DNA of 64,000 nt, taken from assembly GCA_963771275.1 (NCBI GenBank), contig CAVYSW010000005.1, positions 122,460-186,459 on the forward strand. Reading direction: 5' to 3'. Source of the stretch: an uncultured Gemmatimonadales bacterium. GTDB lineage: Bacteria; Gemmatimonadota; Gemmatimonadetes; Gemmatimonadales; GWC2-71-9. Of the stretch, positions 6,238 through 63,784 are shown one piece after another. The translations under genes and the position numbers were made by a program. Position 1 is the first letter of the stretch, and each line of letters starts with the position of its first letter. Below the pieces are notes generated by a model. That model ran no database searches, was not told where the DNA came from, and saw only the letters and a program-made list of their open reading frames with translations.

Positions 6238-6313
6238 CGCCGTTCCGCTGCACGCTGCACGAGGGGGGCGGGGGCGGGGTTAACGCCACCGGCCCCTCTT
6301 GCGTAGAACTGGC

Positions 6314-9300
6314 ATGCGGACGCGTCCTTCCGGGCCCCGGTGGTACCGGCTGTCGCTGGCGCTGGGCGCCTGCCTGACCCTGCGGCTCGCGGCGCCGGCC
6401 CCGGCCCACGCCCAAGCCAACGAAACCACCGATATCCTCACCGGCATCGTCGTGGGGTCGAACGGCCTGCCGCTCGCCGGCGTGATCATCGAAGCGCTGT
6501 CGCTCGAGACCCAGGTAACCCGGACCACGGTCACGGACGCCCGGGGCCGGTACGTGATCCTGTTCCCCAGCGGCGGCGGCCAGTTCCGCATGGCGGCGCG
6601 CAGGGTGGGGTACGCCCCGCAGGCGACCGTGCTGCAACGCCACGCCGACGAAGACCGGCTGGTCTGGGACCTGCAGATGCAGGAAGCGGCGTTCATGCTG
6701 GACCCGATCACGGTGACCGGCGAGGTCATGCGGGCGGTGCGGGCGCCGGATCAGCCGACTCCCGGGTCCGTCCAGCGCGTGTTCACGCCCGAGATGCTCG
6801 CCAACCTGCCGCTCGACGCGTCCGACATCGCCCTGCTGGCCGCGCTGGTTCCAGGCGCGCTGGTCATCGATGCCACCGACAGCACCTCGGCCGCGTACTC
6901 GGTGGCGGGCCAGCGCCCGGACGCCAATCAGCTCACGGTCGACGGACTGAGCTTCGGCTCGGGGCAGATGCCGCAGGAGGGCCTGCGGAACACCCGGGTC
7001 GTCACCAACACCTATGACGTCTCTCGCGGCCGGTTCAGCGGCGGCGTGATGGCGTCGACCACCCGCGGCGGGGCGAATGCCCTCCAGGGCTCGCTCAACT
7101 ACTCGCTGCGCGATCACAATCTGGCGGTCGAAGGCGACTCGGCCACAGCGTTCACTTCCGGATTCACCCAGCACGCGGTCGGGGGCGGTGTCGGCGGCCC
7201 GCTCGTGCGGAACCGGCTGTTCGCCTACTTCTCGGGACAGGTGCGGCTGCGCGCCGATCCCCAACCGTCGCTGACGTCGGCGACGCCCTCGGATCTCGAA
7301 CGCCTCGGCGTCGCCCCCGATTCGGTGAGCCGGTTCGTGGCGATCGTCGACAGCCTCGGCGCCGCGCCCGCCAGCCGGTTCGAAGGGCGGCGGTCGAACA
7401 ACAGCCTCTCCGGCATGCTGCGGGTCGACTACCTGCTGACCCCCAACCACACGCTGATGCTGCGCGGCGACCTGCAGGACCAGGGGCAGGACCCGGTGCG
7501 CCTCGGCGCGTCCGCGCTGCCGGAAACGGGCGGCGAGAGCCGGGGGAGCGGCGGCGGGCTGATGGCCGGTCTCTCGTCCCGGATCGGCGGGCGGATCATC
7601 AACGAGGGCCGGGCGTACGCGTCGACCACCACCCGGGGGAGCGATCCGTTCTGGAACATGCCGCAGGGGCGGGTCCAGGTGGCCTCGGAGCTGGCGGACG
7701 GGTCCGTCGGGATCACGACCCTGCTCATGGGAGGGAGCGCGGGGATGCCGTCGCGATCGCTGACCAGGTCGCTCGAGGTGAGTGACGAGCTGTCCTGGCT
7801 GCCGGGGGCGGCTCGGCACCGCCTGAAGCTGGGGGCCCTGTTCCACGCCGACCGGACCGAGGATCTGTCGGCCTCCAATCAGCTCGGCACGTTCGTCTAC
7901 AACTCGCTCGCCAGCTTCGCGGCTGGCCAGCCGGCGCAGTTCCGGCGCGTGCTCGACCCGAGCGAGCGGGCCAGCACGGCGCTCGAGTTCGCCGTGTACG
8001 GCGGTGACGTATGGCTGCCAAGTCGCGCGCTGCAGCTCAACTACGGGCTACGGCTCGAGCGGGGGCTCGTCAGCAATCCTCCGGCGTACAATCCCGGCCT
8101 CGACTCGAGCCTCGGGCTCCGCACCGATCGGCTGCCCGCGGAGCTCGATCTCAGCCCGCGGGCCGGCTTCACCTGGATGATCGGCGGGACGCCCGGCGCT
8201 CCACCCCGCTTCGTGGTGCGCGGCGGCGTTGGCCGGTTCCGCAGCCCTATCCCGCTCGGGCTCGTGGCGCAGGCCCAGTCCTCCACCGGACTGAACGACA
8301 CGGAATCGCTGCTCGACTGCATCGGCCCCGCGGTGCCGAGTCCCGACTGGGCGGACTACCGGACCAATCCCGCGATGATCCCCACGGCCTGCGCCGGTCC
8401 CTCCCCCGGCATCGCGCAGCGGGCACCCGCGGCCGCCGTGTTCGCGCCCGACTACGGGGCGCCCAAGGCCTGGCGGACATCGCTCGGCGTGCAGCGCAAC
8501 CTCACCACGCTGCTGCGCCTGTCCGTGGACCTGGGCTACGCCCGCGGGATCAGCCAGTACGGCTTCCGTGATCTCAACCTCGACACGGCCGGCGGATTCC
8601 GGCTGGGCGCCGAGGCCGGCCGGCCGGTGTTCGTCGACCCCGGCCAGATCGTGCCCGAGACGGGGGCGATCACGTCACGCGCGTCGCGGATCGATACGTC
8701 GTACGCGCAGGTGCTGGAGATGAACTCGGCCCTGCAGTCGGACACGAAGCAGCTCACGGTGTCGCTCGGGGGGATCACGCGGAAGGGCATCGTGCTCCAG
8801 ACGTCCTACACCTGGTCCCACGTGCGGGACCAGTCGTCGCAGAGCGTGCGATTCGGGTCCGGGCGGCTGGGCGGCACCACGACGTCGGGCAACCCCAACG
8901 TGCCGGAGTGGGGGCGCAGCGGCCTCGAGCGCCGCCACTCCTTCCTCACGACCGTGAGCTATCCGTTCGGGGCCGGCCTCGACATCACGGCGATCGGTCA
9001 GGTGCGGTCCGGCACGCCGTTCACGCCGATGGTCGCGGCGGACATCAACGGCGACGGCGTGGCGAACGATCAGGCGTTCGTGTTCCAGCCGACCGATCTG
9101 GCGGGCATGGATCAGTTGCTGCGCAGCGCGCCGGCGGGCGTGCGCCGCTGCCTCGAGCGACAGCTCGGCGCCGTCGCCGAGCGCAACAGCTGCCTGGGTC
9201 CGTGGGAAGGCTCGTTCGACCTGCAGATCAACATGCGGCCGAGCTTCTGGGGCCTGCGCGGTCGCCTGACGGCGTCGATCACGACCGTGAACCTGCTGCA

Positions 9301-10012
9301 CGGTGTGGACCAGCTGCTCCACGGGAGCGACGGGTTGAAGGGCTGGGGGATGCGCGCGCGGCCCGACGACAACCTGCTGTTCGTGACCGGCTTCGACTCC
9401 ACCGCGCTGCATTACCAGTACGCGGTGAATCAGCGGTTCGGAGCGAGCAGCGCGCAGGGCACGGCGCTGCGCCAGCCGTTCCAGATCGGCATCCAGGTGC
9501 GGATGACGTTCGGGCCGGACCGGACGCGCGACGCCCTCGCCGCCCTGCGCGGCGGCGGCCGCGGAATGGGTGGCGGGTTCGGCGGTGGCGTCGGGGGCGG
9601 CATGGGGGCCGGTGGGCGGGGTGGCGCTGGACGGGTGGCGCCCGCCGACTTCCGCGACCGGCTCCGGACCCTGCTCGTGAATCCGGCGACGATCGTGCTC
9701 GAGCGCGCGGACTCGCTCGCGCTCACGCGGGAGCAGGTGACCCGCCTCACCGCCGTACGCGACTCGCTCAGCGTGGTGAACGACAGCCTCGCCGCGACCC
9801 TGGAGCGGGAGATCGAAGAGGTCGGTGCCGGCGATCCGCGCGCGCTGCTCCAGGCGATCCGCCCGCGGATGCAGCAGGCTCAGGAGAACGCCCGCCGCAG
9901 CCTCGAGGCGGTGCGGGCGATTCTCACCTCGGCGCAATGGGACAAACTGCCGGAACGGCTGCGGAATCCCCGCCCGGCGGGGCTGGACCGGCGTCCGCCG
10001 GGTGGCGGGTGA
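6314..10012 (+). CDS. Oar-like TonB-dependent receptor with N-terminal carboxypeptidase-regulatory-like domain and C-terminal LTxxQ helical extension
   Basis: Signal peptide; TVTDARGRY; plug NQLTVDG and GRFSGGV; DINGDG; barrel end FQIGIQVRMTF followed by Gly-rich linker and LTREQ/LTSAQ motifs. Confidence 0.85.
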   Translation: MRTRPSGPRWYRLSLALGACLTLRLAAPAPAHAQANETTDILTGIVVGSNGLPLAGVIIEALSLETQVTRTTVTDARGRYVILFPSGGGQFRMAARRVGYAPQATVLQRHADEDRLVWDLQMQEAAFMLDPITVTGEVMRAVRAPDQPTPGSVQRVFTPEMLANLPLDASDIALLAALVPGALVIDATDSTSAAYSVAGQRPDANQLTVDGLSFGSGQMPQEGLRNTRVVTNTYDVSRGRFSGGVMASTTRGGANALQGSLNYSLRDHNLAVEGDSATAFTSGFTQHAVGGGVGGPLVRNRLFAYFSGQVRLRADPQPSLTSATPSDLERLGVAPDSVSRFVAIVDSLGAAPASRFEGRRSNNSLSGMLRVDYLLTPNHTLMLRGDLQDQGQDPVRLGASALPETGGESRGSGGGLMAGLSSRIGGRIINEGRAYASTTTRGSDPFWNMPQGRVQVASELADGSVGITTLLMGGSAGMPSRSLTRSLEVSDELSWLPGAARHRLKLGALFHADRTEDLSASNQLGTFVYNSLASFAAGQPAQFRRVLDPSERASTALEFAVYGGDVWLPSRALQLNYGLRLERGLVSNPPAYNPGLDSSLGLRTDRLPAELDLSPRAGFTWMIGGTPGAPPRFVVRGGVGRFRSPIPLGLVAQAQSSTGLNDTESLLDCIGPAVPSPDWADYRTNPAMIPTACAGPSPGIAQRAPAAAVFAPDYGAPKAWRTSLGVQRNLTTLLRLSVDLGYARGISQYGFRDLNLDTAGGFRLGAEAGRPVFVDPGQIVPETGAITSRASRIDTSYAQVLEMNSALQSDTKQLTVSLGGITRKGIVLQTSYTWSHVRDQSSQSVRFGSGRLGGTTTSGNPNVPEWGRSGLERRHSFLTTVSYPFGAGLDITAIGQVRSGTPFTPMVAADINGDGVANDQAFVFQPTDLAGMDQLLRSAPAGVRRCLERQLGAVAERNSCLGPWEGSFDLQINMRPSFWGLRGRLTASITTVNLLHGVDQLLHGSDGLKGWGMRARPDDNLLFVTGFDSTALHYQYAVNQRFGASSAQGTALRQPFQIGIQVRMTFGPDRTRDALAALRGGGRGMGGGFGGGVGGGMGAGGRGGAGRVAPADFRDRLRTLLVNPATIVLERADSLALTREQVTRLTAVRDSLSVVNDSLAATLEREIEEVGAGDPRALLQAIRPRMQQAQENARRSLEAVRAILTSAQWDKLPERLRNPRPAGLDRRPPGGG

Positions 10013-10055
10013 GCGCCGGCACAGCCGGCGGCGCGCCCCACCTTCGAGGATAGGC

Positions 10056-11351
10056 ATGCGGATCATCCCCACCATCCGACTCGTCGCGCTGCTCACGCTG
10101 GCGACCGCGGCCGCGGTCGTCGCGCAGGGGCTGCCGCCGGATCGGCCCGAACGGCTCGGCTTCTCCGCGGAGCGGCTCGCGCGGATCGACCGCGTGATGC
10201 AGGAGGCGGTGGATCAGGGTCGAGTGGCGGGCCTCGTGACGCTCGTCGCACGGCACGGCCGGGTGGCGCAGGCGGGTGCCTACGGCTGGGCCGATCGCGA
10301 GGCCGGGCGCCGCATGACCACGGACGCGCTGTTCCGCATCGCGTCACAGACCAAGGCCGTGACCAGCGTCGCGGTGATGCTGCTGGTCGAGGAGGGGCGG
10401 CTGCGGCTGGCGGATCCGGTCGCCCGGTACGTGCCGAGCTTCGCGCGCGCCACGGTCGCCGTCGCGACCGACACCGGGCGGGTATGGGTGCCGGTCCGCC
10501 GGCCCATCACGCTCCGCGACCTGCTCACCCACACGGCCGGCATCTCCTACGGCACCGACTCGCTGGTGCAGGACCTCTATCGGCCCGTCGGGCTGGGACC
10601 GGCGGCCGGCTACGGGTGGTACTTCGCCGACAAGAAAGAGCCCGTGTGCGACGACGTCGATCGCCTGGGGACGCTGCCGTTCGTCGCGCAGCCGGGTGAA
10701 CGATTCGTCTACGGCTACGCCACGGACGTTCTGGGCTGCGTCGTGGAGCGCGCCTCGGGGCAGTCACTCGCCGACTTCTTCGCTTCCCGCGTCTTCCGGC
10801 CGCTCCGCATGACGGACACCCATTTCTTCGTTCCGTCGGACGATCGGGGAAGGCTCACGGCGGTCTACACCGTTTCGGACGGGGGCCTGGCGCGCGCGGG
10901 GGAGGGGTCGCGCGGGCAGGGGGCCTACGGGGACGGCCCGCGCGCCAGCTACTCGGGGGGTGCGGGACTCGTGTCGACGGCGGGCGACTACCTGCGCTTC
11001 CTGGAGATGCTCCTCGAAGGCGGCGTGCTCGACGGGGCGCGCGTGCTCGGATCCAGGACCGTGGCGCTGATGACCGCGGACCAGCTCGGCGCGCTCTACG
11101 GCAGCACAGGCTACGGGTTCGGATTGGGGTTCCAGGTGCTGGTGGATCCGGGCCGCGCCGGTCAGTTCGGCTCCCCTGGCCTGTACGGGTGGGGTGGCGC
11201 GTACGCCACGAGCTACTGGGTGGATCCGCAGGAAGACCTGGTCGGGGTCTTCATGGTGCAGCTGCTGCCGAACCCGGGGCTCGATCTCGCCGACCGGTTC
11301 CGCGCGCTGGTCTATCAGGCGATCGTCGCCCCATCGCCGCGACGCCCCTGA
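10056..11351 (+). CDS. Serine hydrolase, beta-lactamase (AmpC-like) family
   Basis: FRIASQTK (SxxK), LLTHTAG, YG motif, GWGG; signal peptide. Confidence 0.9.
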   Translation: MRIIPTIRLVALLTLATAAAVVAQGLPPDRPERLGFSAERLARIDRVMQEAVDQGRVAGLVTLVARHGRVAQAGAYGWADREAGRRMTTDALFRIASQTKAVTSVAVMLLVEEGRLRLADPVARYVPSFARATVAVATDTGRVWVPVRRPITLRDLLTHTAGISYGTDSLVQDLYRPVGLGPAAGYGWYFADKKEPVCDDVDRLGTLPFVAQPGERFVYGYATDVLGCVVERASGQSLADFFASRVFRPLRMTDTHFFVPSDDRGRLTAVYTVSDGGLARAGEGSRGQGAYGDGPRASYSGGAGLVSTAGDYLRFLEMLLEGGVLDGARVLGSRTVALMTADQLGALYGSTGYGFGLGFQVLVDPGRAGQFGSPGLYGWGGAYATSYWVDPQEDLVGVFMVQLLPNPGLDLADRFRALVYQAIVAPSPRRP

Positions 11352-11362
11352 CCCCGGGTGGG

Positions 11363-12088
11363 TCAGTCCCTGCCGTCCTTGAGGGCGAGCGCGATGTAGC
11401 GCTCGAGCTCCTCCGCCGACTTGGCGCCGCGGAGCCGCCGGCCGTTGATGAACAGCGTTGGGGTGCCGTTCACGCCCAGCTCCCAGCCGTCCAGCAGATC
11501 GCGCGCCACCGCGGTCCGCGTCTCCTCCGCTTGCAGGCACGACTCGAACGCCGCGAGGTCGAGACCGGCCGCGGCCGCATGGGCGCGGAGTACGGCGTCC
11601 GAAAGCGGCCCGGTGTCCCGCAGTAGCGCGTCGTGGTACTCCCAGAAGCGCCCCTGGCGGTAGGCGCACTCCGCCGCCTGGGCGGCCGCGATCGCGAACG
11701 GGTGGAGCGCGGCGAGCGGGAAGTTGCGCACCACGTAGCGGACGCTGTCGCCGTAGCGGGTCAGCACGACGGGCAGGATCTCCGTCGCATGCCGGCGGCA
11801 GAACGGGCACTCGTAATCGGTGAACTCGACGATCGTGACGGGCGCATCAACCGGGCCGCGGGACGGGCGGTCGGTGATCGGCACCGCGGCCGGCACCGCG
11901 TCGGCGTAGTCGGCCGCGTCACCCGCGAGGCGCGCGGCTGCCGCGCTGCTGCGGATGCGCTGGACCGTGCGGACGCCGAGGAACAGCCCGGCGCCGCCCA
12001 GCAGCCCCGCCAGGACGGCGGCTACCACCATCGCATGATTGGCATTCAGGGCGATCGCGATCCGGTCGCCCTTGCGGTGGATTTCCAT
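11363..12088 (-). CDS. DsbA/thioredoxin-fold protein with N-terminal membrane anchor
   Basis: EFTDYECPFC active site, GVNGTPT cis-Pro loop; start refined to MEIHRKG. Confidence 0.88.
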   Translation of the reverse strand: MEIHRKGDRIAIALNANHAMVVAAVLAGLLGGAGLFLGVRTVQRIRSSAAAARLAGDAADYADAVPAAVPITDRPSRGPVDAPVTIVEFTDYECPFCRRHATEILPVVLTRYGDSVRYVVRNFPLAALHPFAIAAAQAAECAYRQGRFWEYHDALLRDTGPLSDAVLRAHAAAAGLDLAAFESCLQAEETRTAVARDLLDGWELGVNGTPTLFINGRRLRGAKSAEELERYIALALKDGRD

Positions 12089-12275
12089 GCGGAGAATGTG
12101 CGGCTCAGGCGCACGTGGTGCCAGGGTTTGCGCGCCGGCTGCGGCGGGGGTTGCGGGGCAGCGTCCCGTCTCCGATATTGGCCGCGGTCGCGCCTCCGCG
12201 GCACCGCGGCCGACGGGGTGCGCGCAACCACTGCGCCGGAACCGATTCCACCTCCAGGAAGGAGAGGACGCCCCA

Positions 12276-12503
12276 ATGCGCAAGTCCGGATTCCTGTTGT
12301 TGGCAGCCGGAGTGGCAGTGGGCACGGCAGCGATCGGGCTCGCCTGCGGCGGCGATGAAGGGTGCCCCGGCATCGTCTGCTCCGACTGCGGTGCGTTCGG
12401 CGACTGCAACATCTCGTGTACCGCCCCGGAGGTGCAGTACTGCGGCAACTTCGGGCTCTCCACCGACCCGACGTATCGGTGTACCTACTGCGGACCGCCA
12501 TGA
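12276..12503 (+). CDS. Small cysteine-rich lipoprotein (75 aa)
   Basis: AGGAGAGG before ATG; signal ending GLA-C; 8 further Cys in the mature part; followed by a perfect hairpin. Confidence 0.75.
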   Translation: MRKSGFLLLAAGVAVGTAAIGLACGGDEGCPGIVCSDCGAFGDCNISCTAPEVQYCGNFGLSTDPTYRCTYCGPP

Positions 12504-12542
12504 TCGGCGGCACCGCGGAGCCGCTCCGCCGCGTGACGCGCC

Positions 12543-12573
12543 AACGCCCGACCCGCCCCGCGGGTCGGGCGTT
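12543..12573 (+). terminator. Perfect 14-bp stem hairpin downstream of the Cys-rich lipoprotein gene
   Basis: aacgcccgacccgc-ccc-gcgggtcgggcgtt; U-tract is weak. Confidence 0.55.
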
Positions 12574-12669
12574 CGCCTTCATCCGGGGTGGCGGAAGGCG
12601 GTACCGCGGGACAACTTCGCGTGCGTGAGCCGAGCCCACCGTTCCGGTGTGCGGCTCGCCTCCGGCACC

Positions 12670-13599
12670 ATGACCGACACCCTCTCTCGTCGAGCATTCG
12701 TGGAAGCTACGGGCGCCGTGCTGCCCGCGGCGTTCCCGTGGGTTACGGGAGGTCGCTGTGCGGCACCGCGGCCGGATGAGCCGCTGTTTCGCATCTCCCT
12801 CGCCGAGTGGTCGCTCCACCGGGCGCTCGGCAGCGGGACCCTCGATCACCTCGACTTCCCGCTGGTGGCGCGGCGCGACTACGGGATCGAGGCCGTCGAG
12901 TACGTCAACACGTTTTTCCGGGGCAGGGGGACCGACGAGCGCTATCTCGCGGCGCTGAAGGCCCGGGCGGCCGATCACGGGGTGAAGAACGTCCTCGTCA
13001 TGTGCGACGGCGAGGGTGCGATCGGCGATCCGGATCCCGCCGCGCGCACCCGGACGATCGAGAACCACTTCAAGTGGCTCGATGCCGCCGCGGTCCTCGG
13101 TTGTCACTCGATTCGCGTGAATGCGCAGTCGCAGGGAAGCGACGCCGAGCAGCACGACCTGGTGGTGGACGGGCTGCGCCGGCTGACGGAGGTGGCGACC
13201 CTGCGCGACCTCAGCGTCATCGTGGAGAACCACGGTGGGCTTTCGTCCAACGGCGCGTGGCTCGCGGCAGTTATCCGGGCAGTGGGACACCCGCGGTGCG
13301 GCACGCTGCCCGACTTCGGGAATTTCCAACTTGGCGGGAATGAGTGGTACGACCGCTACCGGGGCGTCGCCGAGATGATGCCGTTCGCCCGGGCGGTGAG
13401 CGCCAAGTCCCACGACTTCGATGCCGAGGGCAACGAGCAGCACACGGACTTCCGCCGGATGCTGCGGATCGTGCTCGATGCCGGCTACCACGGTCACGTC
13501 GGGATCGAATACGAGGGAAGCGGGTTGAGCGAGCCCGACGGCATTCGCGCTACCAAAGCGCTGCTCGAGCGCGTCCGCGCCGAGCTCACCGGGGCATAG
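12670..13599 (+). CDS. Tat-exported sugar phosphate isomerase/epimerase (xylose isomerase-like TIM barrel)
   Basis: SRRAFV Tat motif; ISLAEWS, VENHGG, LPDFGNF, VSAKS, GIEYEG. Confidence 0.9.
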   Translation: MTDTLSRRAFVEATGAVLPAAFPWVTGGRCAAPRPDEPLFRISLAEWSLHRALGSGTLDHLDFPLVARRDYGIEAVEYVNTFFRGRGTDERYLAALKARAADHGVKNVLVMCDGEGAIGDPDPAARTRTIENHFKWLDAAAVLGCHSIRVNAQSQGSDAEQHDLVVDGLRRLTEVATLRDLSVIVENHGGLSSNGAWLAAVIRAVGHPRCGTLPDFGNFQLGGNEWYDRYRGVAEMMPFARAVSAKSHDFDAEGNEQHTDFRRMLRIVLDAGYHGHVGIEYEGSGLSEPDGIRATKALLERVRAELTGA

Positions 13600-13604
13600 C
13601 CCAC

Positions 13605-14657
13605 ATGCGGGAGGCCGCGCGGATCGCCCGGAGGTTCGCGACCCTGGTCGAGATGGGGTTCGAGCGGGCGGACCACGCGCCCGTCGCCACCGACGTCATC
13701 CGGCTCGACCCGGCGACCGCGCAGGTCGTGGGCGGGCGCCCCGCGATGGGCACGCTGGTGTCCGTCTCGGCCGTGGGCGAATCGCCGGACCGGCTGGAGG
13801 AGGCGATCGGGCGGGCGTTCGCAGAGATGGACCGCCTGATCGGGCTGCTCACCCGGTTCGAGCCTGCCTCCGCCGTGAGCCAGCTCAACGCGACCGGCCG
13901 GCTCGAGGGGGCACCGCCCGAGGTCGTGCGCGTCGTGCGGCGCGCGCTCGAGCACCACGCGCTGAGCGGCGGGGCGTTCGACGTCACGGTCGCGCCGCTC
14001 GTGGATCTGTTCGCCGACCGGTTCGGCCGCGACACGCCTACCGAGCCCACGGCGGCGGAGATCCGCGACGCCCTCGAGCGCGTGGGGTCGCGGCACGTCG
14101 CGGTTGCGCGGCGGCGGATCAGCTTCGCGCGCGAGGGCGTCGCCGTCACGCTCGACGGCATCGCCAAGGGCTACATCGTGGACGGGATGGCGCGGGCGCT
14201 CGACCGGCGCGGGGTCACGCGCTATCTGATCAACGCGGGCGGCGACATCCGGACGCGAGGGATGAAGCAGCGCGGGCGCCCGTGGACGATCGCGGTGCGG
14301 CATCCGTCGCGGAGCGGCGCGTTCGCGGACGCGATCCACGTGACCGACGCGGCGGTCGCCACGTCCGGGAGCTACGAGGTCTGGTTCGACGACGACCGCG
14401 CGTTCCACCATATCGTGAGCGCGCAAACCGGGCGGTCCCCAAACGGCGTGGCGAGCGTGTCGGTGGTCGCCCCCACGGCGATGGCGGCCGACGCGCTGGC
14501 CACGGGCACGTTCGTGCTGGGGCCGCGCGACGGGGTCGCGCTGATCGAGCGGCTGCGCGGGTGCGCATGTCTGATCATCGATCGGGACGGGCGGCAGTGG
14601 AGATCGCGGGGCTGGAGGAGTGCACCACGCACTGAGGGAGACGAGGTGGCGTCATGA
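13605..14657 (+). CDS. apbE: FAD:protein FMN transferase (ApbE family), no evident signal peptide
   Basis: MGT, FDVTV, LDGIAKGYIVD, NAGGD, ATSGSYE, HIV, ADALAT. Confidence 0.92.
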   Translation: MREAARIARRFATLVEMGFERADHAPVATDVIRLDPATAQVVGGRPAMGTLVSVSAVGESPDRLEEAIGRAFAEMDRLIGLLTRFEPASAVSQLNATGRLEGAPPEVVRVVRRALEHHALSGGAFDVTVAPLVDLFADRFGRDTPTEPTAAEIRDALERVGSRHVAVARRRISFAREGVAVTLDGIAKGYIVDGMARALDRRGVTRYLINAGGDIRTRGMKQRGRPWTIAVRHPSRSGAFADAIHVTDAAVATSGSYEVWFDDDRAFHHIVSAQTGRSPNGVASVSVVAPTAMAADALATGTFVLGPRDGVALIERLRGCACLIIDRDGRQWRSRGWRSAPRTEGDEVAS

Positions 14658-15169
14658 CCCAAGGATCATCCCGTACCGGCGTTCAAACGGCGGCTCTGGT
14701 CACACTCCGCATCCTGATCGGCTGGCACTTTCTGTATGAGGGCCTGGCCAAGGTACTGAGTCCGTACTGGACCTCTGCGGAGTACATGGACCAGGCGCGC
14801 TGGCTGTTCCGGGGGCTGTTTCACAGCCTCGCGGCGAGCCCCACCGCCGTGACGATCGTGGACCTCCTCAACACCTGGGGACTCACGCTGATCGGAGCGG
14901 GGCTGCTGGTCGGACTGCTGACGCGCACGGCCACGGCGTCCGGGCTGCTGCTGCTCGTGTTGTACTACATCGTGGCGCCGCCGTTCGTCGGCTTGCTGTA
15001 CGCCATGCCGGCGGAGGGGAGCTACCTGGTCGTCAACAAAGTGCTGGTCGAGGCCGCCGCCCTGCTGGTACTGCTCGCGTTCCCGACGGGCCATCGGTAT
15101 GGCCTGGACGCACTCGTGTTCCGGAATCGCGGCGCTGCCTACCAGGCCCCCGAGCGGGCCGGCGCCTGA
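14654..15169 (+). CDS. DoxX family membrane protein
   Basis: LRILIGWHFLYEGLAK; about four TM helices; GLLTR; YGLD; ATGA overlap with apbE. Confidence 0.85.
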   Translation: MTQGSSRTGVQTAALVTLRILIGWHFLYEGLAKVLSPYWTSAEYMDQARWLFRGLFHSLAASPTAVTIVDLLNTWGLTLIGAGLLVGLLTRTATASGLLLLVLYYIVAPPFVGLLYAMPAEGSYLVVNKVLVEAAALLVLLAFPTGHRYGLDALVFRNRGAAYQAPERAGA

Positions 15170-15178
15170 GGACACCCG

Positions 15179-16777
15179 ATGACCGACGAAACCAAGCAGC
15201 CAAGCGCGACCAAGGCGCCGGCCGATGACTCGACGCGGATCAGCCGGCGGGGCCTGCTCAAGGCCCTGGTCTCCCTCCCCGTCGTGGGCGTCTTCGTCTA
15301 CAACTTTCTCAGGAAGAAGGCGGCGGACGACGCCAAGCGGCGGGCGATCCTCGCCGAGCTCGGCGTGGCCGAGGGTGGGCCGGCCGTCATTCCGAACGCC
15401 ATCTCGCAGCCACCCAGCAAGAAGCTCCGGGTGGGCATCATCGGGTACGGTGGGGAAGGCGAGTCGCTGGTTCGTCACGCCGGGTTCGCGCACCCCGACT
15501 GGGTCGACGGCGCGCGCAAGAGCGTGCGGGAGAACCCGCGCGACAAACAGCTCGAGACGTATCTCAACCAAGACGACCTCAACATCGCGATCACGGCGGT
15601 GTGCGATGTGTTCGACGTGCGCGCCGAGCGTGCCATCGCCGCGTCGCAGGTGGACGTGCGCTCGGGCGGCGGGCCGGCGCTGCCGGCGGCCAAGCGGTAC
15701 GCGCGCTACACGGACCTGCTCGAGAGCGGCGACGTGGATGCCGTGATCATCGCGACGCCCGATCACTGGCACGCGCGGATGACGATGGATGCCGCGGCGG
15801 CGGGGATCCACGTCTACTGCGAGAAGTGCATGACCCGGACGGCCGAGGAGGCGGTCGCGGTCCACGACGCCGTGACCAGGTCGGGCATCGTCTTCGAGCT
15901 CGGTCATCAGAACCGGCAGTCGGAGGCGCACAACAAGGCGCGCGAGATCATCGCGGCCAAGATCCTGGGGCCCATCACGCTGGTCGAGTCCACGACGAAC
16001 CGCAACTCGCCGTGGGGTGCCTGGGTATGGGACATTCACAAGGACGGGAACCCGAAGACGATCGACTGGGCGCATTTCGAGGAGCCGGCCCCACACAAGG
16101 TGCCGTTCAGCCTCGAGCGCTTCTTCCGGTGGCGCTGCTGGTTCGACTACGGCACCGGCCTCTCCGGCGACCTGCTGTCGCATGAGTACGACGGGGTGAA
16201 CCAGATCCTCCAGGTCGGGATCCCGCGCTCGTGCGTCGCGTCCGGGGGGATCTACTACTTCAAGGACGGACGCGACGTACCGGACACGTTCCAGGCCGTG
16301 TACGAGTACCCCGACCGGGATCTCACGTTCGTCTACAGCGCCACGCTGGCCAACGGACGCGATCGCGGCCTCGTATTCATGGGACACGACGCCTCGATGC
16401 GCGTGAGCGGCAGCCTCACGATTCAGGCGGACTACGAGTCGACGCGCTACGAGCAGAAGATCAAGGACGGCGTGATCGACCCGGGACAGCCGATGTTCAC
16501 GTACCGTCCGGGCTTCAAGGGGATCGACGCCGTGACGTCGGCGACGGAGCAGTACTTCGCCAGCCGCGGGCTGCTGTTTACGTATCGGGGTGGGCGGCGG
16601 ATGTCGGCCTACCATCTGCTCATCGCGGAGTGGCTCGACGTGATCCGGAACGGCGGCACGACGAGCTGCAGTGTGGACCGCGGCTTCGAAGAAGCGATCA
16701 CGTGCCACATGGCCACGCGGTCGTATCTGGAGGGCAGGAAGGTGACCTGGGACGCTCGGCGCAGGGTGATCGTGTAG
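15179..16777 (+). CDS. Tat-anchored Gfo/Idh/MocA oxidoreductase with putative flavinylation motif
   Basis: SRRGLLK plus hydrophobic helix; GIIGYGGEG; IATPDHWH; YCEKC; RWRCWFDYGTG; DAVTSAT at aa 450-456. Confidence 0.9.
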   Translation: MTDETKQPSATKAPADDSTRISRRGLLKALVSLPVVGVFVYNFLRKKAADDAKRRAILAELGVAEGGPAVIPNAISQPPSKKLRVGIIGYGGEGESLVRHAGFAHPDWVDGARKSVRENPRDKQLETYLNQDDLNIAITAVCDVFDVRAERAIAASQVDVRSGGGPALPAAKRYARYTDLLESGDVDAVIIATPDHWHARMTMDAAAAGIHVYCEKCMTRTAEEAVAVHDAVTRSGIVFELGHQNRQSEAHNKAREIIAAKILGPITLVESTTNRNSPWGAWVWDIHKDGNPKTIDWAHFEEPAPHKVPFSLERFFRWRCWFDYGTGLSGDLLSHEYDGVNQILQVGIPRSCVASGGIYYFKDGRDVPDTFQAVYEYPDRDLTFVYSATLANGRDRGLVFMGHDASMRVSGSLTIQADYESTRYEQKIKDGVIDPGQPMFTYRPGFKGIDAVTSATEQYFASRGLLFTYRGGRRMSAYHLLIAEWLDVIRNGGTTSCSVDRGFEEAITCHMATRSYLEGRKVTWDARRRVIV

Positions 16778-16803
16778 GGGAGACGCGAGACGGAGGAGAT
16801 GAC

Positions 16804-18024
16804 GTGAGCACAACGGTCCGCCTGTGCGCGATGATGTTCCTGCAGTACGCGATCTGGGGCGCGTGGGCTCCCGTGCTCTCGGCGCACCTCATCGGCAACC
16901 TGGGGTTCAGCGGCGGGCAGGTCGGCTGGATCTACGCCCTGCTTCCCCTGGCCACGATCGTCTCGCCGTTCATCGGGGGCCAGGTCGCGGATCGGTACTT
17001 CGCGTCGGAGAAGGTGATCGGCTGCCTCGCCCTGACCGGCGGCGCGCTCCTGGTCGTGGTATCGCGCACGACGGATTTCACAGTCATGAGCGGGCTGATG
17101 CTGCTCTACTGCCTGCTCTACGCCCCCACCCTCGCGCTCACCAACTCGATCGCGATGATCAACCTGAAGGACTCCGAGGAGGAGTTCGGGCGGATCCGCG
17201 TGTGGGGCACGCTCGGCTGGATCGCCGCGGGCCTGACGCTCAGCGGGTGGCGCTGGCTGGCGCGGGACGGCGTGATGCCCGTGGTCGCCGGGGACACGCT
17301 GCTGCTCGCCGGGGTGCTCTCGATCGTGATGGGCATCCAGTCGTTCACGCTGCCGCATACGCCCCCCCGCACGGAGGGTGTGAAGCCGTGGGCCTTCGTC
17401 GAATCGCTGAAGATGCTGCGGGTCAGGGACTTCGCGATCTTCGTCGGGATCACGTTCGTCGTCGCGACCGAGCTCGAGTTCTACTACATCCTGACGGCCC
17501 CGTTCCTCGAGGCGAAGATCGGCGTATCGAGCGCCAACGTGCCCGCGGTGATGACGGTGGGTCAGCTCGCCGAGATCTTCGTCATGGCGTTCTTCCTGTC
17601 GCGGGCGCTGAAACGCTACGGCATGCGGAGGACGCTCGCGATCGGGGTGATCGCGTGGCCGCTGCGCTACATCGTGTTCGCCGTCGGGAGCCCGGGGTGG
17701 CTGGTGATCGCGTCGCTCGCGCTCCACGGCTTCTGCTACGTGTTCTTCTTCGTCGCCGCGTTCATCTACGTGGACAAGGTGGCGCCGCCGGACGTCCGGG
17801 CCTCGGCGCAGAGCCTCATCGCGATCGTGGCGCTGGGATTCGGACGGTTCCTGGGCAGCCTGTTTGCCGGCCGTATTCGGGACGTGTTCACGACGGACGC
17901 GGGGACGAACTGGACCCATGTGTTCCTCGTCCCGTGCGCGCTCACCGTGCTGTGCGCGGTGGCGTTTCTGCTGTTCTTCCGGGAGAAGACGCCGCCGCGG
18001 CCACTGGAGCAAGTCCATGGGTAA
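16804..18024 (+). CDS. MFS transporter, nucleoside:H+ symporter (NupG/XapB-like) family
   Basis: MMFLQYAIWGAW, ADRYF, RVWGTLGWI, LHGFCY; GGAGG before GTG. Confidence 0.9.
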   Translation: MSTTVRLCAMMFLQYAIWGAWAPVLSAHLIGNLGFSGGQVGWIYALLPLATIVSPFIGGQVADRYFASEKVIGCLALTGGALLVVVSRTTDFTVMSGLMLLYCLLYAPTLALTNSIAMINLKDSEEEFGRIRVWGTLGWIAAGLTLSGWRWLARDGVMPVVAGDTLLLAGVLSIVMGIQSFTLPHTPPRTEGVKPWAFVESLKMLRVRDFAIFVGITFVVATELEFYYILTAPFLEAKIGVSSANVPAVMTVGQLAEIFVMAFFLSRALKRYGMRRTLAIGVIAWPLRYIVFAVGSPGWLVIASLALHGFCYVFFFVAAFIYVDKVAPPDVRASAQSLIAIVALGFGRFLGSLFAGRIRDVFTTDAGTNWTHVFLVPCALTVLCAVAFLLFFREKTPPRPLEQVHG

Positions 18025-19279
18025 CCTCGCAGGCAAGCGGCTGGGGGTCGGTCTGATCGGCGGCGGGTTCGTCGCCAGGTTCCACATCCGGTCCTGGGTG
18101 GGTGTGCGGGACGCGGACATCCGGGGGAGCGTGAGCCGGAACGACGGCACGGCGGAAGAGGCGGCGGTCCTGGCGCGGCGACTCGGCGTCGGGGACGCCA
18201 AGGTCTACCGCACGATCACGGACATGGTAGCGGACCCCGCGATCCACGCGCTCTGGATCTGCGCGCCGAACTTCACCCGCATCGAGGTCATGGAGGAGAT
18301 CGTCCACGCGATCGAGTCGGGGAAAGGCACGCTCGTCGGGGTAGCGTGCGAGAAGCCGCTCGGCCGGAACGCGGCGGAAGCGCGCCGCATGCTCGAGCTG
18401 GCGCGCCGCGTAGGGCTGCTCGACGGCTACCTCGAAAACCAGCTCTTCTCGCCGGGCGTGGTCCGGGGCAAAGACATCGTGTGGAGCCGGGGCGCGGCGC
18501 TCACGGGGCCACCCTTCCTGGCGCGCGCCGCGGAGGAGCACAGCGGCCCGCACATGCCGTGGTTCTGGGAGGGAGCCCTGCAGGGAGGAGGGGTCCTCAA
18601 CGACATGATGTGCCACTCGGTCGAGGTCGCCCGGTTCCTGCTCACGCCCCCCGGCGCGACGCGCGACGCGCTCACGCCGGTCAAGGTCACGGCCCATACG
18701 GCGTGCCTCAAGTGGCAGCAACCCCGCTACGCCGATCGTCTCGCGCGGGACAGTGCAGGAAAGACGGACTACCGGAACCGGCCCGCCGAGGATTTCGCCC
18801 GCGCCCTGGTGGAGTTCCGGGCGGCGGACGGAAGCCGGCGGCTCGTCGAGGCCACGACGTCCTGGTGCTTCGTCGGCGCGGGTCTCCGGCTCAGCATGGA
18901 GCTGCTGGGCCCGGAGTACTCGCTGGCCGTGAACTCGCTGGATGCCGGGCCGAAGATCTTCTTCAGCCGGGAGGTGCGCGGCGCGGCCGGCGAGGACCTC
19001 GTGGAGAAACAGAACGCGGAGATGGGGCTCATGCCGGTCGTGAGCGACGAAGAGGCCGAGTACGGATATGTGGGGGAGAACCGGCACATGGTGCAGGCGT
19101 TCCGGGAGGGGCGACGCCCCGCGGAGAGCTTCACGGACGGGGTCGCCGTGACCGAACTCCTGATGACGGCGTACATGAGCGCGGAGCAGGAGCGCACGAT
19201 CGCGTTCCCGCCGCCCGATCTAGCGGCGTTCGTGCCGGCCGTGGCGAGGGGGCAATGGAATCCGGGCCAGCCCGCGTAG
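18017..19279 (+). CDS. Gfo/Idh/MocA oxidoreductase (no signal peptide)
   Basis: GLIGGGFVA Rossmann motif, CEKPLG, GGGVLNDMMCH. Confidence 0.9.
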   Translation: MGNLAGKRLGVGLIGGGFVARFHIRSWVGVRDADIRGSVSRNDGTAEEAAVLARRLGVGDAKVYRTITDMVADPAIHALWICAPNFTRIEVMEEIVHAIESGKGTLVGVACEKPLGRNAAEARRMLELARRVGLLDGYLENQLFSPGVVRGKDIVWSRGAALTGPPFLARAAEEHSGPHMPWFWEGALQGGGVLNDMMCHSVEVARFLLTPPGATRDALTPVKVTAHTACLKWQQPRYADRLARDSAGKTDYRNRPAEDFARALVEFRAADGSRRLVEATTSWCFVGAGLRLSMELLGPEYSLAVNSLDAGPKIFFSREVRGAAGEDLVEKQNAEMGLMPVVSDEEAEYGYVGENRHMVQAFREGRRPAESFTDGVAVTELLMTAYMSAEQERTIAFPPPDLAAFVPAVARGQWNPGQPA

Positions 19280-19294
19280 GGCGGAGGAGGCAGC

Positions 19295-19960
19295 ATGCGG
19301 TGTGTCGGAGGCGTGTGGTGGGGGAGCGTGCTCGGGGCGGTCGCCGTGGGGGCCCAGGCGCCGATGCGTGAGGCGTCAGCCCAGGACCCGGGCGCGACGC
19401 CGGGGTTCGAGCAGCTCCTCAAGACGCCCGACGGCGGATACTCCAAGGCTGGGTGGAACCACTACGGTCCGGGCTACTTCGATCTCGATCCGCAGACCGG
19501 GATGCTGACGTCGCACGGCGGCATGGGTCTGTTCTGGTACGCGGTCCGAGAGTACGCCGACTTCGTGCTCGAGCTGGATTTCAGGTGCACGGACGGGGCG
19601 ACCAACTCCGGCGTGTTCCTGCGGGTGCCCGGTGTGCCGTCGAGCGACGACTACATCTATCACAGCTTCGAGATCCAGATCGACGACGCGAGCGCAGGGA
19701 TTCACCACACCGGTGCGGTGTACGACGCGGAGGCGCCAAGCGCGCTCGCGTCGAAGCCGCCGGGCGAGTGGAATCACTACGCGATCACCTTTCGGGGCGG
19801 CCACGTCACCGTCGAGCTCAACGGCACGAAGGTGATCGACTGGGAAGCCGAGCCGCGGGGCAAGGTGCGGGACTGGGCACGGCGGGGCTACATCGGGCTC
19901 CAGAACCACGACAACCAGAGCCCCGTGTCCTTCCGCAACATCTTCGTCAAGCAGCTCTAG
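19295..19960 (+). CDS. DUF1080 protein (3-keto-disaccharide hydrolase-like)
   Basis: YADFVLELDF, NSGVFLR, FEIQIDD, GEWNHY, GYIGLQNH, FRNIFVK; signal-like N-terminus. Confidence 0.9.
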   Translation: MRCVGGVWWGSVLGAVAVGAQAPMREASAQDPGATPGFEQLLKTPDGGYSKAGWNHYGPGYFDLDPQTGMLTSHGGMGLFWYAVREYADFVLELDFRCTDGATNSGVFLRVPGVPSSDDYIYHSFEIQIDDASAGIHHTGAVYDAEAPSALASKPPGEWNHYAITFRGGHVTVELNGTKVIDWEAEPRGKVRDWARRGYIGLQNHDNQSPVSFRNIFVKQL

Positions 19961-20624
19961 CCGGCGTGGTGGATCGGGTGGGCGCCGGCACGAGGCGCCC
20001 GCTCCACCACCACGCGAGCCCCGCGAGCACCACCCCGCAGCCGACGTCCGCCACGTAATGCTGCTTGACGAACACGGTCGAGACCGAGATGCCCACGAGG
20101 AGCGCCAGCAGCAAGTGCGGCCGTCGCAGGGCGGGACGACACGCGAAATAGAACAGCCAGGCGGTCGCCACATGAAGGCTCGGGAAGTGGTTGTACGACG
20201 GGTCGTGGTACTCGAGCCAGAGCAGGAACGTCGCGACCGAGCGGATCTCGAGCCGCGGCCGCTCAAGGTACACCGGGAAGGCGAGGTACGTGGCGTACGC
20301 CGCCGCGAGCGTGACGCCGATCGCCACGAGCAGCCGCGCGAACGCGCGCGCGTCGGGCAGCCGGAACAGCGCCACGAGCGGCACGAAGTAGGCGAGCACG
20401 TAGAGGAACTCGAACTCGGGCACGAACGGGATTGCCTGCTCGCGGGGCAGCCAGAGCGCGTGCGCGGGCCGGCCAATGCTGAGCGCGTTGACGGCGCTGT
20501 ACGTGACGGCGAAGATCGCGTAGGTCACGAGCAGCACCACGACGAGGCGGCGCCGTTGGAGGCGCCCCTCGGGGGCGACCCACCGGGAGAGGCCGGCGAG
20601 CGTGGTGGGGCGAGGCTGAGGCAT
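19947..20624 (-). CDS. PAP2-superfamily membrane phosphotransferase/phosphatase (IPC-synthase-like)
   Basis: DPSYNHFPSLHVA and STVFVKQHYVADV motifs; several TM helices. Confidence 0.8.
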   Translation of the reverse strand: MPQPRPTTLAGLSRWVAPEGRLQRRRLVVVLLVTYAIFAVTYSAVNALSIGRPAHALWLPREQAIPFVPEFEFLYVLAYFVPLVALFRLPDARAFARLLVAIGVTLAAAYATYLAFPVYLERPRLEIRSVATFLLWLEYHDPSYNHFPSLHVATAWLFYFACRPALRRPHLLLALLVGISVSTVFVKQHYVADVGCGVVLAGLAWWWSGRLVPAPTRSTTPARAA

Positions 20625-20671
20625 CGCGCTGCAAACTGCGCCGCGGGCCACCCGGAGACAACGGGGGTGTG

Positions 20672-59814: not shown

Positions 59815-60056
59815 CCACCCCCAAGCGCGTCGCCTTCCCGACAGCGGGCCCGATGCGATCGGGGTGGTCGGGTCGCGACGGGTTTGAGGGCTGACAGCGG
59901 CCACTCGGCGCGTTCTGCCCGATGAGACGGGCGGTGGCCGACCGGGCGTCGCCGTTGCGCGACAGATGGTGCCGAGTAGCCGCTTGAGCGGCGTCCTACA
60001 CGACCCAACCGACCGCGCGCCGCCGATCCTGGCTTGATCCGGGGCCCGGAACGACA

Positions 60057-60098
60057 ACGGCGGGCCGCGGCAGCCCGTGGGGCGCCGCAACCCGCCGT
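60057..60098. terminator. GC-rich hairpin just downstream of the pepD fragment stop
   Basis: acggcggg..gcggc.gccc / gggc.gccgc..cccgccgt. Confidence 0.5.
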
Positions 60099-60121
60099 GA
60101 TCCACTCTCTTGGAGCCGTTC

Positions 60122-60253
60122 TCAGTTCACGTTCTTCAGGATCGCCAACAGGTAGTTCCAGAACTTCTCCACCGTGTCGATGAAGATCTTCTCGTCGGGC
60201 GAGTGCACGCCCTGGAGCGTTGGGCCGAACGACAGCATGTCCATGCCCGGCAT
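60122..60253 (-). pseudogene. pepD: Isolated 3' fragment of aminoacyl-histidine dipeptidase (M20C)
   Basis: Minus-strand translation MPGMDMLSFGPTLQGVHSPDEKIFIDTVEKFWNYLLAILKNVN* matches the PepD C-terminal signature; absent from the ORF track. Confidence 0.8.
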
Positions 60254-62210: not shown

Positions 62211-62872
62211 CGGCTCTGCCCCTGCTGGTCCTGGCGTTCGAGGCCGCGGCTGGCGCCATGAGTTCGAGAGCGGAAGGAGCGTCGGTGCAGGGTGATTCGG
62301 CGCGATGTGCGCACCTCGACGGTCGCCCTTCGGTCCGGCGAGTGCAAACGAGTTCGGCCTTCGGTTCGGCTATTCGCGCTTTGCGCTCCACGTTACGAGC
62401 GTCGTTCCCACAGGAGCGTGGTGTCTTGGTTGGCGCCAGACTGGACGAGCTCTGCGGGTCGATGAAGATCGTCCAGAACGGGCTCTTTGACCTTGGCCCG
62501 GTCGTCTATTTCGAAATCGGTCTTGCTGGGGAGGCTCAGGTGGTCGCGTTCGGGGTTGGAGAGCGCGAGGTCGTGTTGCTTAACCCGATGTACGAAGGCC
62601 GACTCACAGCCGGCCTGTCCACGGAGGCATGGAACCGTTTCGCTGACTCGGCACCGGAGAGAGCCGGTCGGGATGAGCTATGGGCCATCGCCTATGCCTG
62701 CCTCCTGAACCGGCTTTCGCGGAACATGGATCCGGCCGGCCTCTGTCAGGGGGAGGAGGGAATGACTATTCGGCCGCAGGGGCAGGGTTGGGTCGTCACT
62801 CTGCAGCGGCTCGGCGCGAGTATCACCTTGTCGAACACAGGTCGGTTGCTTGTCATGAACGAACCGCCGTGA
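62207..62872 (+). CDS. Hypothetical protein, putative cognate immunity protein
   Basis: ATGA overlap with RHS stop; signal-like N-terminus; assignment is positional. Confidence 0.55.
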   Translation: MTALPLLVLAFEAAAGAMSSRAEGASVQGDSARCAHLDGRPSVRRVQTSSAFGSAIRALRSTLRASFPQERGVLVGARLDELCGSMKIVQNGLFDLGPVVYFEIGLAGEAQVVAFGVGEREVVLLNPMYEGRLTAGLSTEAWNRFADSAPERAGRDELWAIAYACLLNRLSRNMDPAGLCQGEEGMTIRPQGQGWVVTLQRLGASITLSNTGRLLVMNEPP

Positions 62873-63145
62873 TCCACACCTACGGCCGTGGTTATTCGCG
62901 GCGCCACGAAGTCGTCAGGGCCCGACAGTACGGTCCGAGCTGCCTCGTGGAGTTGCGTGCCGACACCGCCCACCTCAGATCGGTTAGATCGCCCATCGCT
63001 GGAAGGTCGGACATCGGCCAAGGCGCTCGCTGATTCCATGTAGCTGCGCGCGCTGAATCGGATTCGCGAGCGTCTCGGTGCTTCGGGGGGGCGCCTCGGG
63101 CCTTCTCTCACGACGAGATGTGATGCTTCGATTGGGGCGGCCAGC

Positions 63146-63778: not shown

Positions 63779-63784
63779 GGCCCA

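Follow-up and report, generated by a model that had tools for sequence, protein, structure and literature searches.

The closest described relatives of the system considered here are the 3-keto-glycoside gene sets of Bacteroides (BT2156-2159) and Alistipes (AL1-4), in which an exported Gfo/Idh/MocA (Gfo) sugar dehydrogenase is encoded together with a DUF1080 protein, a triosephosphate isomerase (TIM)-barrel enzyme and a cytoplasmic Gfo oxidoreductase. How is the nicotinamide adenine dinucleotide (NAD) bound to such a periplasmic Gfo enzyme re-oxidized? The 3-keto-glycoside papers propose a sugar or 3-ketoglucose as the oxidant. The accessible part of Liu et al. refers to an 'as yet unidentified sugar' and states that exported Gfo enzymes bind NAD or its phosphate, NAD(P), tightly (PMC8121099). 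For BT2158/AL3 (Protein Data Bank (PDB) entries 8tdf and 8tdh; NCBIfam family NF058561), the accessible text of a later study proposes NAD recycling with 3-ketoglucose and describes no DoxX or ApbE partner (bioRxiv 10.1101/2024.03.25.586180). In Zymomonas mobilis glucose-fructose oxidoreductase (GFOR), which is exported by the twin-arginine translocation (Tat) system with tightly bound NADP and works by a periplasmic ping-pong mechanism, a second sugar re-oxidizes the cofactor (accessible part of PMC8121099). Here, we describe a seven-gene operon (positions 12670-19960, + strand) in a 64,000-nucleotide (nt) stretch of DNA from an uncultured Gemmatimonadales bacterium (contig CAVYSW010000005.1, positions 122,460 to 186,459), hereafter the window. 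The operon appears to encode a second answer, in which a covalent flavin on its Gfo dehydrogenase, Gfo4 (gene g4, 15179-16777, + strand, 532 aa), and a DoxX-family membrane protein would drain the electrons to quinone. Gfo4 shares with BT2158/AL3 the Gfo/Idh/MocA fold, the twin-arginine N-terminus and the DUF1080, TIM-barrel and cytoplasmic Gfo neighbours. Unlike BT2158/AL3, it is ~60-80 aa longer, contains a DAVTSAT loop, appears to retain its membrane helix and is paired with DoxX. A tethered flavin mononucleotide (FMN) and a membrane partner are thus proposed for Gfo4 in place of the second sugar of GFOR.

The enzyme that would attach the flavin is ApbE, a flavin adenine dinucleotide (FAD):protein FMN transferase that recognizes the canonical motif D-x-x-[S/T]-G-A-[S/T] and modifies its last Thr/Ser residue (PMC12052999). 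The established ApbE clients are FMN_bind proteins (NqrC, RnfG, NosR, PceC and PplA), NqrB/RnfD, DUF2271, DUF3570, FMN_red and Flavodoxin_4 proteins. In common with Gfo4, they have a compact D-x-x-[S/T]-x-A-[S/T] sequence whose last residue is Thr/Ser, a cognate ApbE nearby and a role, predicted in the case of Gfo4, at the membrane-periplasm interface. In Gfo4, by contrast, the site is part of a loop in a Rossmann dehydrogenase of the NAD type that lacks a flavin domain, and Ser usually stands for Gly. A cytoplasmic ApbE resembling that of our operon has been described in Klebsiella pneumoniae, where, according to the accessible part of the paper, it has no signal peptide, serves a dedicated client (soluble fumarate reductase) and coexists with a second, secreted ApbE in the genome (PMC12052999). 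The Klebsiella client is an FMN_bind protein that remains cytoplasmic, whereas Gfo4 appears to be exported after modification. For the membrane protein, we take as a model the DoxD/DoxX family, including the thiosulfate:quinone oxidoreductase DoxDA, in which a small polytopic membrane protein accompanies a periplasm-facing redox enzyme, as the DoxX of our operon would do.

We propose, with a probability of roughly 0.6, that the operon mediates oxidative, 3-keto-type glycoside breakdown and that its first enzyme is flavinylated and wired to the respiratory chain rather than redox-neutral. More tentatively, and at somewhat less than even odds, Gfo4 may define a new class of ApbE client, in which a loop-tethered FMN acts as a built-in second substrate that swings between bound NAD(P)H and a quinone site of DoxX, flavinylation precedes Tat export in some lineages and the module is reused by ~520-aa DoxX-fusion enzymes.

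The candidate flavinylation site of Gfo4 is D450-A-V-T-S-A-T456 (16526-16546, + strand), with T456 as the proposed FMN-bearing residue. The original prediction, made from the window's sequence, had named a 'DxxSGAT-like' FMN motif in the Gfo protein; this wording is fair, but the site is a variant with Ser in place of the Gly of the canonical motif. To follow the site in relatives, one genome per species was scanned, which yielded 80 loci from Gemmatimonadota, Aminicenantes, Marinisomatota, Calditrichota and many Bacteroidota. Motif counts refer to the window and the 76 loci whose Gfo4 homologue covers the loop (n=77), one locus being cut by a contig end. D450 and the final Thr/Ser at position 456 are each found in 77/77 sequences, and position 453 is Thr or Ser in 74/77. 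Position 454 is Ser in 64 sequences, Thr in 10 and Gly in 3, and position 455 is Ala in 65 and Pro in 12. The motif is retained in every DoxX-linked relative of the 80-locus set whose sequence covers the loop, and both the motif and DoxX are missing from the three loci of lowest identity (32-35%). A wider homologue search of 1.84 billion cluster representatives returned 319 proteins at E <=1e-30. Among the 150 of these that were listed, as representatives of 50% clusters, at least 18, with identities as low as 39%, have D-x-x-[ST]-[GSA]-A-[ST] at the corresponding position, and at least two of the listed motif-bearing representatives carry the canonical DAVSGAT; the motif is absent from the shorter, more distant Gfo proteins of the same list. 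In the 3.86-Mb genome itself, a six-frame scan with a tight version of the motif found only one further match, in a 185-aa open frame.

A second protein family bears on the Ser-for-Gly variant. In a family of DoxX-fusion proteins, generally ~510-540 aa long and represented here by 112 proteins of 490-580 aa, a DoxX domain 40-60% identical to that of the operon leads into an RRxxLK helix resembling that of Gfo4; next come a flavinylation-type site and an unassigned C-terminal domain of ~300 aa, for which no Pfam match was obtained in the three proteins scanned. The linker past the RRxxLK helix reads [ST]GA[ST] in 60 of these proteins and [ST]SA[ST] in 36, and Gly and Ser therefore interchange at one homologous site. 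This interchange beside the same DoxX subfamily is the best argument that TSAT may be a working variant of the ApbE motif. In a model ApbE client, a change of the motif Gly to Ala left ~50% flavinylation (PMC12052999). One relative of the DoxX-fusion family, P0284, is fused instead to a polysaccharide deacetylase domain. In a deep Gemmatimonadota lineage (loci L084 and L085; G002:C39 and G032:C3), a DoxX-Gfo4 pair at 42% identity has Glu in place of the motif Asp (EAVTSAT and EAITSAT); these Gfo4 proteins contain ~30 additional residues inserted behind the position that corresponds to residue 362, TIM-barrel genes lie near, and no ApbE was found in the 17 kb covered.

The most constant neighbour of Gfo4 is DoxX. 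In the operon, the DoxX-family gene g3 (14654-15169, + strand) encodes a small membrane protein of 171 aa. In 74 of the 80 loci, a DoxX homologue adjoins that of Gfo4 in the same orientation, 71 times upstream and three times downstream, with a median gap of 44 nt and in at least four phyla. When only loci with the motif are counted, DoxX is adjacent in 73/76, and two of the three misses fall at contig edges. The six loci without an adjacent DoxX comprise the two at contig edges, the three motif-less distant relatives and one motif-bearing locus, L053. In Flagellimonas, Algoriphagus and a metagenome-assembled genome (MAG) of Saprospiraceae, the pair has only unrelated genes around it, and the conserved core is therefore the pair and not the whole operon. 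Moreover, four protein clusters are natural DoxX-Gfo4 fusions of 682-695 aa that keep DAVTSAT, and Pfam found both parts in the 2/2 scanned. The DoxX homologues score 26-38 bits across the loci, and 67 sequences make up their alignment (A3); the genome contains two other DoxX genes, from which g3 stands out as much more divergent (26 versus 62-66 bits). By analogy with its family, g3 is proposed to be the membrane partner and quinone site of Gfo4.

A Gfo-DoxX complex, whose modelling the original prediction had suggested, was predicted with a score of 0.57 (runs 0.57, 0.54 and 0.60), compared with 0.00 for the best of three controls; the runs share at least 67% of their contacts, and the pLDDT (predicted local distance difference test) of the partners is at least 78. 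The benchmark mark for this score was reached by 116/157 solved complexes and 2/215 mismatched pairs, and scores <=0.60 include 18 of the 157 solved complexes and both mismatches that passed, so the result lends weak support to a direct contact while exceeding its controls.

In a Marinisomatota MAG (L012:5856-9467), DoxX-Gfo4 is directly preceded on its strand by electron-transfer flavoprotein beta/alpha genes and a gene for an Fe-S/CCG-domain protein. In Odoribacter laneus YIT 12061 (L031:6029-9430), an open reading frame of 1134 aa with HEAT repeats and two DUF1080 domains is directly upstream of the pair and is itself preceded by a GH109-like Gfo gene (GFO_IDH_MocA_C2, 476 bits).

ApbE links to Gfo4 in fewer loci. 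In the window, the ApbE gene g2 (13605-14657, + strand, 350 aa; Pfam ApbE (PF02424), 253 bits over profile positions 1-265/266) lies two genes upstream of Gfo4. A sample of 151 Gemmatimonadota genomes, which includes the flagged unpublished genome G057 on which no claim stands alone, contains nine with a close Gfo4 orthologue (at least 63% identity). ApbE is located upstream of Gfo4, on the same strand and within ~2.3 kb, in 8/8 assessable genomes, the ninth beginning at a contig edge. The synteny of all seven genes is complete in L087 and L089 and near-complete in L088, and the ApbE-DoxX-Gfo4 triad occurs alone in L090. In the same sample, ApbE is present in 14/14 Gfo4-positive genomes compared with 77/137 others, in a comparison of related genomes that are not independent. 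A hidden Markov model (HMM) search placed ApbE near Gfo4 in 12 of the 80 loci, from Gemmatimonadota, Aminicenantes, Marinisomatota and Bacteroidota (four Bacteroidota loci), including a same-strand run in Prevotella sp. 10(H) that reads Gfo-DoxX-Gfo4-Gfo-DUF1080-TIM-ApbE-TatC. In genomes that have a DoxX-Gfo4 pair with no adjacent ApbE, an ApbE is encoded elsewhere in 10/10. The co-occurrence of apbE, doxX and gfo, on which the original prediction depended, was thus borne out by DoxX over the locus set and by ApbE in Gemmatimonadota. One Gemmatimonadota Gfo4 orthologue (G023:C9:186244-187828) is split into two frames (residues 4-233 and 234-531) by a frameshift or an assembly error, with ApbE still adjacent. 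In Aminicenantes, a NusG_II-domain protein (L005:8057-8899) is encoded beside a lipoprotein ApbE, divergently from DoxX-Gfo4.

Where would the flavin be attached? The g2 N-terminus, compared with its orthologues and with the second ApbE of the genome, contains neither a signal peptide nor a lipobox and thus departs from the typical secreted form, which makes g2 a predicted ApbE of the cytoplasmic type. Linked ApbE proteins have no signal in Gemmatimonadota, Prevotella and Dysgonomonas, a hydrophobic N-terminus being absent from g2, its Gemmatimonadota orthologues and the L033 and L034 proteins, and are lipoproteins in L005, L029 and L071. A client that is reached by both cytoplasmic and periplasmic ApbE types would therefore be folded in the cytoplasm and then exported, which fits a Tat substrate. 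The genome has two ApbE genes, and the second, which has a Tat signal, belongs to an Rnf-like cluster and adjoins the sole FMN_bind (RnfG-like) gene of the genome; with g2 beside Gfo4, each ApbE therefore has its own potential client adjacent. We also considered whether the ApbE linkage spread as a single transferred cassette. This idea was rejected because the linked ApbEs differ in signal type and, from phylum to phylum, share only 25-30% identity with g2, no more than the Rnf-linked paralogue does (32%). The Rnf-like cluster of the second ApbE, which lies outside the window at G000 contig C3:1141549-1151397 (L083), has an unusual Rnf-type front end, starting with an open reading frame of 1484 aa with PFOR-like and ferredoxin domains; it continues with RnfD-like, Rnf/Nqr membrane-subunit and FMN_bind genes and ends with this ApbE.

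Gfo4 belongs to the Gfo/Idh/MocA family according to the scores of its N-terminal Rossmann domain (PF01408, 53 bits) and C-terminal alpha/beta domain (PF22725, 33 bits), with a further match to PF02894. Its Rossmann-fold G-x-G-x-x-G dinucleotide-binding loop occupies residues 89-94 (15443-15460, + strand); in the Gfo4 alignment (A2), no variation is seen at G89, G91 or the pair E215-K216, and conservation of G94 is at least 90%. The N-terminus contains a twin-arginine motif, SRRGLLK, followed by a hydrophobic helix (residues 22-44; 15242-15310, + strand), and at least 90% of the sequences in the same alignment keep R23 and R24. An AlphaFold2 model based on a 74-row alignment (pLDDT 86.8; predicted template modelling score, pTM, 0.84) builds residues 23-61, including the hydrophobic stretch, as one long helix, and the N-terminus is probably an uncleaved Tat signal-anchor. 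Tat signals had been predicted on both Gfo4 and the TIM-barrel enzyme; the RR motifs are legible by eye in each, and no Tat-signal model confirmed them. Foldseek searches with the Gfo4 model retrieved levoglucosan dehydrogenase, the Alistipes glucoside 3-dehydrogenase AL3, DgpA and Zymomonas GFOR (1rye). The best sequence relatives in the PDB are 8tdf (E 3.9e-23) and 8tdh, in a match limited to residues 168-372. Against the BT_2158 family NF058561, Gfo4 scores 115.3 bits over residues 145-381 only, far under the cut-off of 750, and is therefore a relative of the known glycoside 3-dehydrogenases and not a member of the family. Within the catalytic domain, the sole long low-confidence stretch is the loop at residues 447-459 that carries the motif.

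These features can be assembled into a working mechanism. Gfo4 would take up NAD(P) in the cytoplasm and bind it tightly, and the signal-less ApbE g2 would link FMN to T456 on a flexible surface loop. Folded Gfo4 would then leave through the Tat system, its N-terminal helix anchoring it beside DoxX. In the periplasm, Gfo4 would convert a hydroxyl of a sugar or glycoside, most likely that at C3, into a ketone, with reduction of the tightly bound nicotinamide. The tethered FMN would re-oxidize the bound NAD(P)H, replacing the second substrate of the redox-neutral relatives, and would pass the electrons to quinone at DoxX. The keto-glycoside would be cleaved by the exported TIM-barrel enzyme (g1) and the DUF1080 protein (g7), and the keto-sugar would be imported by the transporter g5 and reduced by the cytoplasmic Gfo enzyme g6.

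Several observations weigh against this proposal. The motif is non-canonical in most sequences, with Ser for Gly in 64/77 and Pro for Ala in 12/77, and we found no experiment on either substitution. No flavin pocket is known in the Gfo fold, and the motif loop is modelled with a pLDDT below 50. Tat-signal models of Pfam and NCBIfam gave no match at E values up to 10 to the N-termini of g4, g1, g2 and g7 (first 50-60 residues for g4 and g1). ApbE is adjacent in only 12/80 loci, and its presence elsewhere in a genome is weak evidence, ApbE being common. On the side of DoxX, the Pfam match of g3 is marginal (DoxX, PF07681; 24.6 bits against a cut-off of 23.6), and g3 scores 16.3 bits against the DoxD thiosulfate:quinone oxidoreductase equivalog NF041179 with its cut-off of 300, which sets g3 apart from DoxD as a distinct subfamily; its quinone role is drawn from family analogy. 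In the motif-bearing locus L053, no DoxX was found in the 14.5 kb around Gfo4, HMM search included. In several Bacteroidota (L040, L060 and L023), the pair has no glycoside-pathway gene nearby.

The likeliest alternative keeps a real DoxX-Gfo4 membrane complex but leaves the TSAT loop unflavinylated, as a structural, docking or substrate loop, with ApbE serving another client or a flavin-handling role. It would account for the rarity of canonical Gly at position 454 (74/77 differ), for the limited spread of ApbE adjacency and for the Gfo4 model, in which no flavin-binding domain was found. We nevertheless consider it unlikely. None of the other six operon proteins contains an [ST][GSA]A[ST] site, and they were rejected as ApbE clients for this reason; the genome's only classical client adjoins the other ApbE. 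ApbE proteins of unrelated types are encoded beside Gfo4 in four phyla, and the Gly/Ser interchange in the DoxX-fusion family also speaks for flavinylation of the loop.

It is less likely again that the operon encodes an ordinary redox-neutral 3-keto-glycoside pathway of the Bacteroides/Alistipes style, in which 3-ketoglucose recycles NAD, DoxX is a mere anchor or unrelated and no electrons leave on balance. The enzyme families are the same as in BT2156-2159 and AL1-4, and recycling by 3-ketoglucose has been proposed there. The clusters described in the accessible text of that work, however, have neither DoxX nor ApbE, Gfo4 falls far short of the BT_2158 cut-off, and DoxX and Gfo4 stay paired in loci that have no pathway genes nearby and are even fused in some organisms.

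An alternative that we regard as slightly more doubtful still retains the FMN and sends the electrons to something soluble, such as a cytochrome, oxygen or an acceptor outside the cell, with DoxX as a scaffold or anchor only. It draws on the family-based nature of the quinone assignment and on the statement, in the accessible part of the eLife 2021 survey of flavinylation, that flavinylated proteins often feed extracytosolic acceptors (PMC8238504), but the operon contains no cytochrome or carrier gene, and DoxX adjacency is near-universal while the remaining context varies. Reversed flow, in which quinol would reduce FMN via DoxX and Gfo4 would reduce a periplasmic keto-sugar, is the most improbable alternative, since the DUF1080 and TIM-barrel partners act on keto-glycosides, which must be made first, and quinol is a poor reductant for NAD-linked ketone reduction, although Gfo enzymes are reversible and sequence sets no direction.

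The respiratory reading, with a flavinylated Gfo4, would bring together three known elements (a protein modification, an enzyme fold and a membrane-protein family) in a way that appears undescribed. The original prediction knew of no description of it, and our literature search likewise found no publication that joins ApbE with DoxX or DoxX with Gfo and, among the matches listed, none of relevance that joins flavinylation or ApbE with Gfo/MocA proteins or glycosides. The accessible main text of the eLife 2021 survey mentions neither Gfo nor DoxX. According to that text, ApbE genes without a signal peptide were discarded and further clients await identification (PMC8238504); an ApbE of the g2 type would therefore have been removed. 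A mSystems paper of 2024 added FMN_red and Flavodoxin_4 as clients, and its accessible part does not mention Gfo or DoxX.

If the proposal is correct, sugar oxidation outside the cytoplasm would yield energy, and an NAD-type dehydrogenase would join the list of ApbE clients. The widespread and poorly understood DoxX family would gain a concrete role, and flavinylation would be seen to precede Tat export. The module would also provide a way to run an NAD-dependent dehydrogenase where free NAD is absent. The occurrence of the DoxX-Gfo4 pair in many Bacteroidota, including gut Odoribacter, Prevotella and Dysgonomonas, and in phyla found in the sea and in soil means that the pair bears on carbohydrate turnover in several habitats. 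Cultured carriers include Carboxylicivirga sediminis JR1, Algoriphagus alkaliphilus DSM 22703, Maribellus sp. CM-23 and Odoribacter laneus YIT 12061.

The remaining operon genes complete the setting of Gfo4. As originally claimed, seven tightly spaced or overlapping genes of the named families lie on one strand, in the order TIM-barrel, ApbE, DoxX, Gfo, nucleoside:H+ symporter family (NHS)-type transporter of the major facilitator superfamily (MFS), second Gfo and DUF1080, as confirmed by open reading frames, gaps and Pfam. The gaps are 5, -4, 9, 26 or 53, -8 and 15 nt, and the stop codon of g2 overlaps the start codon of g3 by 4 nt. The genes on both flanks, a DsbA-like gene (11363-12463) and a PAP2 gene (19947-20651), are on the minus strand, and the seven genes are therefore a bounded unit. 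A promoter and terminator scan of 12300-20300 found 0 sites resembling promoters and 3 resembling terminators (shuffle mean, 2.2) and was uninformative. Families were assigned with Pfam profile scores, and equivalogs were judged by NCBIfam cut-offs.

The combination of two Gfo enzymes, DUF1080 and a TIM-barrel enzyme had been read as a 3-keto-glycoside pathway, and both the families and the Bacteroides and Alistipes papers agree with this reading. The full gene set of BT2156-2159/AL1-4, with a predicted exported Gfo, DUF1080, a TIM-barrel enzyme and a cytoplasmic Gfo in one operon, is present in the window and also in L012, L029, L034 and L087-L089. The first gene, g1 (12670-13599, + strand), encodes a xylose-isomerase-like TIM-barrel enzyme of 309 aa (Pfam AP_endonuc_2, 90 bits) and is the predicted counterpart of BT2156/AL1; its N-terminal SRRAFVE motif is followed by a hydrophobic stretch, so the enzyme is probably exported. 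Orthologues of g1 are found at the matching position in L086, L087 and L089. The NHS-type MFS transporter g5 (+ strand; Pfam Nuc_H_symport, 326 bits) ends at 18024 and starts either at a GTG at 16804, with GGAGGAG in front, or at an ATG at 16831; it is syntenic in L006, L008-L010, L012, L029 and L087-L089. The second Gfo/Idh/MocA oxidoreductase, g6 (18017-19279, + strand, 420 aa; PF01408 and PF22725), has no signal and is probably a cytoplasmic keto-sugar reductase, the counterpart of AL4; its orthologues in syntenic loci are 66-82% identical. The last gene, g7 (19295-19960, + strand), encodes a DUF1080/3keto-disac_hyd (3-keto-disaccharide hydrolase family) protein of 221 aa (Pfam, 131.6 bits) with a hydrophobic N-terminal signal, and its homologue BT2157 hydrolyses 3-keto-trehalose according to the accessible part of PMC8121099.

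Upstream of the operon, on the + strand at 6299-11351, the window encodes a beta-lactamase-family protein and a TonB-dependent-receptor-like outer-membrane beta-barrel protein of 1237 aa, which has a CarboxypepD_reg domain; the two long open reading frames overlap at 9825-10012, and one of the two start codons is probably farther downstream. The closest protein relatives are from Gemmatimonadota, and the G+C content is ~70% over the window and falls to ~63% at 60001-64000.

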